Shown here piece after piece: positions 19,689 through 23,424 of a DNA stretch of 64,000 nt. A program made the position numbers and the translations under genes. The stretch's first letter is position 1, and each line of letters begins with the position of its first letter. This DNA is from Eledone cirrhosa (lineage: Eukaryota): the NCBI GenBank assembly GCA_964016885.1, contig OZ024742.1:3968001-4032000 (forward strand), read 5' to 3'. The notes under the pieces are model-generated. The model was not told where the DNA came from. It was given only the letters and a program-made list of their open reading frames with translations, and did no database searches.

Positions 19689-19886
19689 ATAGGAAAATGT
19701 TTAACCCCGACGACAGAGCTCAAGCCATTTCGACGGCTATTTCTGGAGTCCAGAAATAGCCGTCGAAACGGCTTGAGCTCTGCCGTCGGGGTTAAACATT
19801 TTCCTATTACCCACTCTACTACCCTAAGTATTGAGTACTCTGGTGCGTTATGGTCCATCTGGTTCCTTACCACACTTCCTTCGTTA
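19689..19886 (+). mobile_element. Short HHR-derived element with a 59-bp-arm palindrome (19689-19807, axis 19748)
   Basis: Arms differ at 2 positions. The right arm reads stem II 3' strand-GAAA-CGGC ttgagctct GCCG-TC-GGGG (3' half of an HHR). (TA)n on both sides; homologous to 23230-23424. Confidence 0.9.
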
Positions 19887-20059
19887 TATATATATATATA
19901 TATATATATATACAGTATATAGTTAGAGAAGCAAAAAATTGGTTATTGTGATCCAGTTCTTGGTTAAGAAAGCCAGTTTCATGGATGGTTTCAACGTACG
20001 GTTAGGGGTAACTCCACAAGTTTGTAAGAATTCTGTTAAATCTTGGAGTATAAAGTATA

Positions 20060-20473
20060 AAAGAGAAACCTGTCAATTACATAATGAATGTATGCAGTCT
20101 AACCTGGTTTACCAATGCACAGTGGAATCAGACAACCAGAAATGGTATTACATCGGAGCGACTGGGAATACATTTAAAGCCCGTGGGTATACACACCGTT
20201 ACGCAATGAAACATTCCCAGCACCTTATGTAACTACCCTTGCAAACAAGACCTGGCAACTGAGGGAAAGTAACCATCAATACACCCTGAAGTGGAAAAAA
20301 TTATCGAACGAGCCCCCATATCGGAGTGGTATGAGAAGCTGTCGATTATGCGACCTTGAGCTGTTCCACATCTTAAGTTCGAAGAATAAGTTACTCAACA
20401 ATAAAATCGAAAGATCAATTTATTGTAACCATAGACTCAAAGAGAAGTTTTCGCACTACAAATCGAACCCTTA
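20060..20473 (+). pseudogene. PLE (Naiad-type) GIY-YIG endonuclease fragment
   Basis: CQLHNECMQSNLVYQCTV...YYIGATGNTFKAR..TH, then a frameshifted TTLANKTWQL...W...PY.SG.RSCRLC.LE. Confidence 0.85.
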
Positions 20474-20710
20474 ACCTCTTACTACCAACTGACAAACTGC
20501 ATATACTTAGACTTTATACCCTCTTGTTGTATCTAAGCCCTTTTAATTACCCATAAAACCAATACATATATCCCCCTCTTCTCCCTCAATCCTCTTCTAT
20601 TTCTTCGTTTTCTTCCTTCCTTCCCTCCCCTTCTTGGCTATCTTTTCTTCTCTTCTTTCTCACCCCCTTCTTTGCTTTTCTTTTTGTCATTATTATCTTT
20701 ATCTTTATTT

Positions 20711-20856
20711 TATATATATATATATATATATATATATATATATATATATATATATATATATATATATATATATATATATATATATATATATATATATATA
20801 TATATATATATATATATATATATATATATATATATATATATATATATATATATATA
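20711..20856. repeat. (TA)n microsatellite (one of many; also (TG)n 21266-21457, (TA)n/(GA)n 54296-54455 and 59937-60153)
   Basis: Pure dinucleotide tracts; these are the source of the IYIYIY/CVCVCV ORFs. Confidence 0.98.
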
Positions 20857-21925
20857 GTTAAAAGAATAGAGGTGTAACACACAAGTTATTATATATTGGT
20901 AAACGGAATAGAAAATGCTGACAAATTGTTCACAGTTGAAAAATGGTTTAATTAGGAATAAAAGAGTATTAGTGATTGTATGGGTTAGTATTCAGTTGTG
21001 GTTTTAAGTTTTTAAGTTTTTACCGGTTGCGCATTTCTAAATGCTTTTCAAAAATAATTTTGAGATAGAGTGTCCGTGCTGTTTGCTCTGATCTGATTAG
21101 TTTTGGGAATTCTACCTGTTTTTATGTTAAAAAAGTGGCTCCAGCGTTATTTTTGTGTTGCAAAAATGCTTGTGGTCAAAATAATTTTGATTGGTCGGTA
21201 GAGGTCATGTGAATGTAAAAAGTTGATTTTGCGCCAAGATTGAGAAATGACTCTTTCACAACAAATGTGTGTGTGTGTGTGTGTGTGTGTGTGTGTGTGT
21301 GTGTGTAGTAGTAGTAGTAAGGTGTTCGATGCTGCGACAATGGCCAGCAGCGATGTGTGTCAAATGGCTATTAAGATAAGTGTGTGTGTGTGTGTGTGTG
21401 TGTGTGTGTGTGTGTGTGTGTGTGTGTGTGTGTGTGTGTGTGTGTGTGTGTGTGTGTATAGCAGAGTCATTCGAAGGTCAAAAGATATTTTTCAGCTTTT
21501 GTCTTATACGGAGAAGTGCGTGTGTGTGTGTGTATAAGTCTCTTTGTATGTTGATGTACGCGTGTGTATGTGTTTGTGTATATATATATGTGTGTGTGGG
21601 GGGGGGGACCAGTATTTTTTTCCCCCTGGTAAAATGGTGTACATTATTCGATTTTTTTCAGTAAAATCGGTTCTCTTAATAGAACATCAAAAATCTTAAC
21701 AATAAAAGGTGTGAAATGATATTCACTATATATATATACATACATACATATATTCACTACATATATATATATATATACATATATACATACATATATATGC
21801 ACATATATTTTTTTGTATTGCACCATAGAGCATGTGTGTTTACGTGTGTCATTGTGTTTATATGTGGGTAGAGATGTGTGCTGATGTAGGTATGTATGTT
21901 GACGTGTGTATGTTGTGGGTTCGTC

Positions 21926-22135
21926 TTAGGGAGAAGTGTTTAGACGGGGTCCGTATTTGTTAATGAAGTAAGATTCCTTGCTGATGCGCTGGGTGTGGGT
22001 GGCATTATCTTTAAATTTGTAGAGGGGAAAGATTCTGAAGTTGGGATGATTTTGGGCGGCACAGGTATCAATGTGTTCACTCAGCGGTATTTTCCTGTAT
22101 TCCCGTATTTTAATTTGGGATCTATGGACAGTCAT
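21926..22135 (-). pseudogene. PLE GIY-YIG C-terminal fragment
   Basis: MTVHRSQIK..EYRKIPLSEHID.C.....F.IFPLYK......R..KESYFINKYGPRLN is a typical PLE endonuclease tail. Confidence 0.75.
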
Positions 22136-22138
22136 AGT

Positions 22139-23024
22139 TTATTAGCTATCGTCAGCAACGTATACCTTCCTGCCAGATTGTTGAACGTATATACTTACCT
22201 TATGCATATTAACGGCTGAGTAGCCCAATTTGCATATCGAGTGGGTTAATCGGCCTGGTGCACCGAAAACGATAAACGGAAAAAATGAAACGAAATTTCT
22301 TTTCCCACTCTTAGTACGGCTGTTACTTAAATATAAGTATGTACACGTACATACATATATGTATACAGACGTACAGTAGTATGTATATATATACATACAT
22401 GCACACATATATATATATGCACGTATGGATGTTCGGTGAATGTTCGGTGAATCCATACGTGCATATATATATGTGCATGTATATATATATATACATACTA
22501 CTGTACGTCTGTATACATATATGTATGTACGTATACATACTTATATTTAAGTAACAGCCGTACTAAGAGTGGGAAAAGAAATTTCGTTTCATTTTTCCGT
22601 TTATCGTTTTCGCTAGACCCGGCCGATTAACCCACTCGATATGCAAATTGGGCTACTCAGCCGTTAATATGCATAAGGTAAGTATATACGTTCAACAATC
22701 TGGCAGGAAGGTATACGTTGTTGACGATAGCTAATAAGCTTGAAACTAGTACAGCGTTCCTTTGTCAGTGTTGAACAAACGAGCAACGATGGTTGCTAGA
22801 GACTACGGCTTAATACGGGATGTTTGTTTACAAACACACCGAGCATTATAATAAATGTTCGGTGAATCCATACGTGCATATATATATGTGTGCATGTATG
22901 TATATATATATACATACTACTGTACGTCTGTATACATATATGTATGTAAGTGTACATAATTATATTTAAGTAACAGCCGTACTAAGAGTGGGAAATGAAA
23001 TTTCGTTTCATTTTTTCCGTTTAT
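22139..23024. mobile_element. ~415-bp HHR-containing non-coding unit: 1.4 tandem copies (+, 22441-23024) preceded by an inverted ~290-bp copy (22139-22430)
   Basis: TGTTCGGTGAATCCATACGTGC recurs at 22441 and 22856, and TACTAAGAGTGGGAAA at 22561 and 22980. 22139-22430 is the reverse complement of 22451-22737. Confidence 0.88.
22716..22756 (+). ncRNA. Minimal type-I hammerhead ribozyme (U3 variant)
   Basis: CGTTG-TTGACGA-tAGCT aata AGCTt-GAAA-CTAG-TA-CAGCG; the inverted copy at 22139-22160 retains CTGACGA. Confidence 0.8.
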
Positions 23025-23229
23025 ACACATATATATATATATATATATATATATATATATATATTTATTTATGGAATAGAATGAAACGAAATTTCATTTC
23101 TCACTCTTAGTACGGCACTTACTCAAATGTAAGTATGTATGTATACGTACATACATATATGTATACAGACGTACAGTAGCATGCATATATATATATATAT
23201 ATATATATATATATATATATATATATATA

Positions 23230-23424
23230 TAACGAAGGAAATGTGGTAAGGAACCAGGTGGACCATAACGCACCAAAGTACTCAATACTTGAGGTAGTAG
23301 AGTGGGTAATAGGAACCAGTGAGACCCCGACAGCTGAGCTCAAGCCGTTTCGACGGCTAATTCTGGACAGAATTAGCCGTCGAAACGGCTTGAGCTCAGC
23401 TGTCGGGGTCTTACTGGTTCCTAT
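23230..23424 (-). mobile_element. Second copy of the HHR-derived palindromic element (palindrome 23309-23424, 57-bp arms)
   Basis: One mismatch between arms; GAAA-CGGC ttgagctca GCTG-TC-GGGG; tail homologous to 19808-19886; flanked by (TA)n. Confidence 0.9.

Follow-up and report, generated by a model that had tools for sequence, protein, structure and literature searches.

In the 64,000-nucleotide stretch of the Eledone cirrhosa genome analysed here (the window; assembly GCA_964016885.1, contig OZ024742.1, positions 3,968,001 to 4,032,000), two near-palindromic, diverged elements, copies A and B, each lie within (TA)n. These palindromes are head-to-head mini-insertions of an autonomous Penelope-like element (PLE) of the Hydra clade, with an open reading frame (ORF) for reverse transcriptase (RT) and GIY-YIG endonuclease and a 3.5-kb unit. 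Judging from sequence, it is likely that one RNA is copied from both ends of a (TA)n cut, starting at fixed sites +61 and +141, and that both cDNAs run to the RNA 5′ end and are then end-joined.

Positions in the element are numbered from the A of AGTCC (window 19747), which is +1. The two copies share 88% identity across 183 nt, and each has a single-sided 80-nt tail. Their features in the window are as follows.

19689-19886, plus strand: copy A element, within (TA)n, with 59-nt arms, 2 mismatched pairs and a 1-nt centre.
19689..19746, minus strand: tail-less arm of copy A, inverted parent +4 to +61, its CCTAT end abutting (TA)n.
19744..19750, no strand: head-to-head junction of copy A, between the tail-less and tailed arms.
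19747..19887, plus strand: tailed arm of copy A, parent +1 to +141.
19755..19792, plus strand: hammerhead 3′ half of copy A (stem II 3′ strand, GAAA at 19765, stem III, stem I 3′ strand), as placed by the parent fold.
Between 19787 and 19788, plus strand: hammerhead cut of copy A predicted from the parent fold.
19808..19887, plus strand: 80-nt tail of copy A, spanning the two putative reverse-transcription starts, +61 to +141.
19676..19688 and 19888-19912: (TA)n target flanks of copy A.
23230-23424, minus strand: copy B element, within (TA)n, with 57-nt arms, 1 mismatched pair and a 2-nt centre.
23229..23368, minus strand: tailed arm of copy B, parent +2 to +141, young subfamily.
Between 23329 and 23328, minus strand: hammerhead cut of copy B predicted from the parent fold.
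23368..23424, plus strand: tail-less arm of copy B, parent +5 to +61, its CCTAT end abutting (TA)n.
23185-23228 and 23425-23455: (TA)n target flanks of copy B.

A sequence-only reading of the window had described these two elements correctly in several respects: both carry GAAA-CGGC-loop-GCYG-UC-GGGG next to the axis, the extra arm of each stops at CCTAT, and the subfamily letters agree between the arms of each copy. The 5′ half of the hammerhead core is missing from both, with the mirror arm in its place. That reading had also equated the hairpin at the axis with ribozyme stem II, and here it was mistaken: the hairpin is the mirror of the 3′ strand. The parent has its true 5′ strand some 35 nt further upstream (positions −35 to −27 approximately, separated by a long loop), and neither window copy contains it.

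The family is large. An exact pattern for the tailed arm has at least 22,596 matches and one for the palindromic centre has 12,477, against 0 for each reversed control pattern, so the palindromes are not due to chance; the tailed arm of copy B by itself has 4,317 exact matches. In genome order, 7 of the first 30 tailed arms run upstream into common sequence with no central mirror, and in a larger set a script scored 12 of 87 as running on in this way. The upstream sequence of the non-folded copies is a 3′ untranslated region, itself preceded by a GIY-YIG frame. At locus L286, the pseudo-long terminal repeat (pLTR) of copy B's young subfamily is followed by an open frame of 786 residues (first Met at +232) with RWR, DKT and YRDD motifs, CxCx5C (CNCPDRSIC), CxxC (CNLC), CxH (CKH) and Y-x-C...YIG, and with no match to a CCHH motif. 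A Pfam scan of the parent ORF returned 0 families; its best homologue carries PF01541. Parent units occur in tandem with a period of about 3,543 bp. In 336 places the tail runs on towards the ORF, and the parent continues beyond +141 into the ORF, from which it follows that neither 3′ end of the palindrome is an RNA end and that both are internal. A tandem array of at least 4 units stands at L310-L313 (G000:C1:91.47-91.49 Mb), where a comparison over 1.4 kb gives about 99% identity with L286. L301, L302, L303, L305, L307 and L328 are short partial tandems: part of the mRNA 5′ region comes first, and the sequence then jumps back to about +1.

The single RT/GIY-YIG ORF, the pLTRs in partial tandem, the inverted 5′-truncated copy and the tail at one end are those of an endonuclease-bearing (EN+) PLE, and the PLE origin suggested earlier is borne out by this parent. 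Assignment to the Hydra clade is by motifs (RWK-like, DKT, CxCx5C, CxxC and CxH, with CCHH absent), together with (TA)n insertion. Hydra-clade PLEs share with the present family a C-terminal GIY-YIG, RW[K/R], DKT and the CxCx5C linker without CCHH, as well as a pLTR hammerhead, a (TA)n target, partial tandems, an inverted 5′-truncated copy and a tail at one end (PMC8557442). The tail is 80 nt here and 30-40 nt there, and the unit is 3.5 kb here and reported as <3 kb there (PMC8557442). Also particular to the present family are a U3-A8 core, a long loop II that contains the inferred start site, and mini head-to-head products that outnumber ORF-linked pLTRs by about 70:1 (22,596 vs 336, from patterns that differ in strictness).

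The two arms of a palindrome are almost always one of each kind: 3,475 copies pair a tailed with a tail-less arm, 20 pair two tail-less arms and 18 pair two tailed arms. The CCTAT end, read earlier as a chance microhomology join, behaves instead as a fixed reverse-transcription start. For the palindrome axes we took 94 young-subfamily tailed arms in genome order and detected a second arm in 74; a few of the calls with no second arm are decayed arms, about five of the 74 have complex or mis-paired centres, and none was removed. The tailed arm reaches further 5′ in 29 of the 74, the tail-less arm in 23, and the two are equal in 22 (p = 0.49). L292, L297 and L298 have a tail-less arm that exceeds the tailed one by 0.45-2.3 kb, the one in L292 containing 2 kb of ORF not in its tailed arm; the tailed arm is the longer in L293, L294 and L295. 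The unpaired centre measures 0-2 nt in 35 of 72 copies and forms a loop of 3-10 nt in 25. Fold-back of a tailed cDNA would leave the tailed arm always further and a loop of at least 3 nt, and neither holds across the copies. Both arms have their own untemplated ends in L223, L267 and L204 (with unequal A-runs in L267 and L204), and templated insertions stand at the centres of L177 and L283. As claimed before, the junctions are independent for each insertion, as their centres vary. Short microhomologies and templated insertions at centres resemble polymerase-theta end-joining. Taken together, the data favour two cDNAs, one made from each side of a (TA)n break and the pair then end-joined, over a single cDNA folding back, which the sequence-only reading had proposed.

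Arms from different sources can also be joined. Two subfamilies that differ at two sites give 29 chimeric copies against 3,475 and 3,972 matched ones, an arm agreement of 99.6%, and at five loci an arm of the family stands head-to-head with another hammerhead-bearing family. The partner at L031, L040, L044, L054 and L056 is a roughly 220-nt element that ends in (TA)n and carries a whole CUGAAGA hammerhead. Other hammerhead-bearing families themselves form head-to-head palindromes (L046, L053 and L407-L416; about 17 loci in one of them, with scattered axes).

The 5′ ends of the arms are not scattered: 59 of the 94 tailed arms start at +1 to +7, and 11 extend far into the parent. These axes fall inside hammerhead loop II. 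Truncated arms that reach +1 carry G at −1 in 28 of 76 cases, where the parent has T or C in 16 of 16 copies, and by eye about 20 of the 28 extra Gs are not attributable to the partner arm. Untemplated A runs extend beyond +1 in several copies, and at 5 of 30 loci template jumps land on +1 or no more than a few bases from it. An extra G arises when a cap is copied by reverse transcriptases. We infer that transcription starts at +1, in an initiator-like TYAGT within loop II, and that the transcript is capped there, in which case only read-through RNA would carry the whole ribozyme. A splice acceptor at +1 was rejected, since the arms include the AG and there is no fixed upstream exon.

A complete hammerhead, expected in copies that are not folded, is found in 29 relatives, 27 of them with the core YUGANAA and not the predicted CUGANGA. 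The minimum-energy fold of the parent region from −52 to +60 is a type-I hammerhead, with stem I at P 0.93 and stems II and III at about 0.7 each; three stems surround the core, and G10.1-C11.1, GAAA and a UH cut site are present, the predicted cut falling between +41 and +42. Among 29 distinct natural copies, the core is TTGAGAA in 10, CTGAGAA in 8, TTGATAA in 5, TTGAAAA in 3 and a singleton in 3; 27 of 29 fit YUGANAA (TTGANAA or CTGAGAA), position 7 varying freely. The parent thus departs from the canonical CUGANGA, and the 8 CTGAGAA copies are mismatched at 3-8; a U3-A8 core has been described as a variant in Schistosoma PLEs (PMC4209133). In 18 copies, 90.5% of stem cells are paired. A search for canonical CUGANGA gave 59 matches, and the 30 inspected were chance occurrences within mirrors, partners or flanks, none being the parent core. 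A type-II permutation, with the core downstream of GGGG, was set aside as inspection revealed no core in the tail. Rfam over the window lists no hammerhead among the matches listed (150 of 191). Complete hammerhead descriptor matches of other families lie at about 63715 and 55998 (both minus strand), one of them with a U3-A8 core.

A second axis coincides with the predicted cut. In about 5% of palindromes both arms end at the scissile bond, +42. A pattern with a CCCC-to-GGGG gap of at most 30 nt has about 280 matches, and by eye both arms are at +42 in 25 of 52 among the matches listed; a tighter, oriented pattern for very short palindromes has 213, and two further subfamily groups contribute 188 and 81. 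Among the matches listed for the tighter pattern (100 of 213), 32 show untemplated A/T against the ends, 28 are zero-insert joins and 8 lie at least 2 nt further upstream, all scored by eye. A scripted parse of 29 of 30 fetched loci yielded 58 arm ends: 24 fall at +42, 15 at +41 (the ambiguous zero-insert class), 4 upstream and 15 downstream. Of 121 matches, no more than about 35 combine +1 with +42 (by eye, the 100 listed include 14 clear cases and about 15 ambiguous ones), whereas about 1,440 would be expected if the arms were independent. This roughly 40-fold depletion implies that both arms come from one molecule, or at least from one source. We infer that the +42 ends derive from RNA cut by the ribozyme, and these insertion ends are probable evidence of ribozyme cleavage in vivo.

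For the +42 class alone, RT stalling at the G-run and stem III, or deletion of the palindrome centre, could replace cleavage, which we regard as rather unlikely. Stem III does begin 2 nt upstream, the CCCCGGGG zero-insert joins and GAGCTC-palindrome joins fit microhomology, and the share of short palindromes is similar (4.7% vs 6.1%), not clearly depleted, in the subfamily that includes C3-A8 cores. Against this, the boundary is base-sharp, untemplated A/T abuts the GGGG ends, as it does at +1, and non-palindromic template jumps also land on the +42 GGGG at 2 of 30 loci (L324 and L326).

Instead, each arm might be templated by its own RNA molecule, the two having a common source locus or burst. 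The chimeric and cross-family arms show that two RNAs can be used, a palindromic GAGCUC in loop III offers possible pairing, and a protein dimer is predicted for the Anolis protein (PMC11167929). Such a scheme, however, needs an extra asymmetry to yield 3,475:20:18, and a sorting of cut from uncut RNA at the level of the source to account for the scarcity of mixed +1/+42 copies; we consider it unlikely.

Less probable still is that a single cDNA snaps back near the RNA 5′ end and primes itself, the palindrome centre being trimmed later. Snap-back is documented for R2 (PMC11371274) and self-priming has been proposed for PLE palindromes (PMC3846280), so the earlier impression that such a process had not been described does not hold. 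The near-constant match of arms within a copy, their shared 5′-end class and the 25 centres with loops long enough to fold would suit it. On the other side, the tail-less arm is the longer in 23 of the 52 unequal copies, 35 of 72 loops are too short for folding, separate non-templated tails and chimeric arms occur, and the fixed +61 stop is left unexplained. In the particular form put forward earlier, with ribozyme stem II as the priming hairpin, the predicted product would retain the loop and link the mirror to the stem II 5′ strand of the parent; it occurs 0 times against the 12,477 palindromes, and we rejected the elements' identity as a stem-II-primed snap-back system on this product; a second family, with a compact stem II, gives 1 match.

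That a palindromic master, a miniature inverted-repeat transposable element (MITE) or short interspersed element (SINE), was copied whole is highly improbable. At least 35 more copies match copy B across all 195 nt including the centre, and the 29 of them examined all share one and the same difference, but these full-length matches were ranked by identity, and unselected copies show many centres. Likewise, an arm mismatch shared by the top BLAST matches to copy A seemed to indicate a palindromic master and was discarded as a ranking effect: the A-type mismatch affects the tail-less arm in 119 cases and the tailed arm in 129, in line with the earlier expectation that left arms do not descend from one master. 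There is no 5′ promoter region, inspection revealed no tRNA-type promoter boxes, the parent ORF is identified, and the inherited centre and arm differences that would define a MITE or SINE are absent. A fold-back artefact of sequencing or assembly is barely conceivable: restriction-site-associated DNA (RAD-seq) reads stop at +8, probably at a restriction site, which leaves palindrome centres unresolved in raw reads, but the mirror halts at CCTAT, the flanks are unmirrored, the arms have diverged with age, and raw reads of two other samples place both 3′ ends beside (TA)n (+61 ends in 2,907 and 2,596 reads, +141 ends in 7,398 and 8,050).

Copying of one RNA from both DNA ends could proceed as follows. 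The protein would bind RNA near the pLTR and cut both (TA)n strands; one DNA end would prime at +61 and the other at +141 of the same RNA, the second cDNA displacing the first; both would run to the RNA 5′ end, and host end-joining would fuse them. Priming in the 5′ pLTR would give 195-bp palindromes from capped RNA or about 115-bp ones from cut RNA, the 195-bp copies being probably dead ends, while priming in the downstream pLTR of uncut read-through RNA would give long, ORF-bearing copies. After a cut at +42, the downstream priming sites would no longer be on the ORF-bearing RNA, which, more speculatively, may limit productive transposition.

Several points weigh against this scheme. Trimming of centres after insertion could erase the asymmetry of fold-back and create short loops, and two RNAs of one locus could also produce arms of the same subfamily with the same 5′ end. 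In the Anolis PLE, ribozyme cleavage is not needed, and reads ending at the cut site were absent (PMC11167929). A TATA-like box at −29 is confined to the young subfamily and is not kept in all subfamilies, and we did not rely on it for the start site. The stems show no two-sided changes among copies that are 92% identical, and Rfam finds no hammerhead on five parent loci. The zero-insert +42 joins fit CG microhomology joins of longer cDNAs, and the similar short-palindrome share of the C3-A8-containing subfamily, given above, points the same way.

Among similar known systems is the Anolis Poseidon element PAc, which in vitro nicks and extends both strands, with two internal RT starts that bound the tail; AT-rich targets and uncleaved RNA as the main template are also common to both (PMC11167929). 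The family described here differs in that both starts follow TAT, matching (TA)n, in that the two starts are divided one to each DNA end in 99% of copies, and in that about 5% of palindromes end at the ribozyme site, whereas RNA-seq of PAc gave no such reads (PMC11167929). Penelope of Adineta vaga likewise has a head-to-head inverted pLTR, a one-sided tail, a junction palindrome and an Inr-like pLTR motif; its palindromes were read as self-priming on an antisense template, while the statistics here favour two sense-templated cDNAs (PMC3846280). LINE-1 twin priming, too, uses the second DNA end as an internal primer on the same RNA and unites the products by end-joining, but with an opportunistic second site and hardly any overlap between the arms (PMC11702581). 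Here both sites are fixed, and a single 5′ segment is copied into each of the two cDNAs, which results in a palindrome in most insertions. Snap-back 5′ junctions of R2 share antisense sequence at the 5′ junction, often after a full-length cDNA, but are a minority class copied from one cDNA (PMC11371274). Non-LTR retrozymes (10.64898/2026.07.22.740005) are also short, hammerhead-related and PLE-derived; they form head-to-tail tandems with a whole ribozyme in each unit, whereas our elements are head-to-head with half a ribozyme or less, and we rejected that identity accordingly. The accessible text of PMC13282606 contains nothing on this PLE family. The literature searched, with subscription papers mostly outside it, yielded neither two-ended junction statistics nor any insertion with its end at a PLE hammerhead site. 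Work published in 2017 on rotifer Terminons may be relevant here.

Other repeats surround the two copies. A further feature, outside both palindromes, belongs to a different Hydra-like PLE family:

20062..20450, plus strand: broken GIY-YIG endonuclease fragment with 39-40% identity to the parent protein.

A broken fragment of another Hydra-like PLE family occupies 17592-18649 (minus strand); the two fragments are 34-43% identical to the parent protein, and each adjoins (TA)n. Interleaved with copy B, at 22136-23770, is a separate TA-rich repeat family with several inverted copies, arms of up to 170 nt and a 48-nt spacer at 22415-22462. Satellite arrays of 17 bp and 25 bp fill window positions 2-9806 and 25570-40158, and two copies of a 189-bp repeat at 47378-47742 are SINE-like, presumably resembling a cephalopod SINE.

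The layout of an inverted copy plus a tail is already known, while for a genomic trace of PLE ribozyme cleavage we found no report. Both the origin of that layout and hammerhead cutting in vivo are stated to be open questions (PMC8557442, PMC4209133, PMC11167929). The genome-wide counts separate the models in three ways: each insertion uses one of each start, its two arms share a 5′ end, and there is a sharp scissile-bond class. The young subfamily, with its open ORF and 141-nt minimal template, is suited to direct tests. The result is a mechanistic readout of a known class and not a new kind of element, with stem-II snap-back rejected. The wider proposal, that two-ended reverse transcription of one RNA is obligatory, that the hammerhead cuts in the germ line, that the ribozyme acts as a throttle on transposition and that the palindromes are a fossil map of RNA 5′ ends, is put forward tentatively, as possible but somewhat doubtful in its entirety. 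If it is true, tens of thousands of palindromes would form a base-resolution record of capped versus ribozyme-cut RNA 5′ ends, and the same readout should work for PLEs generally.

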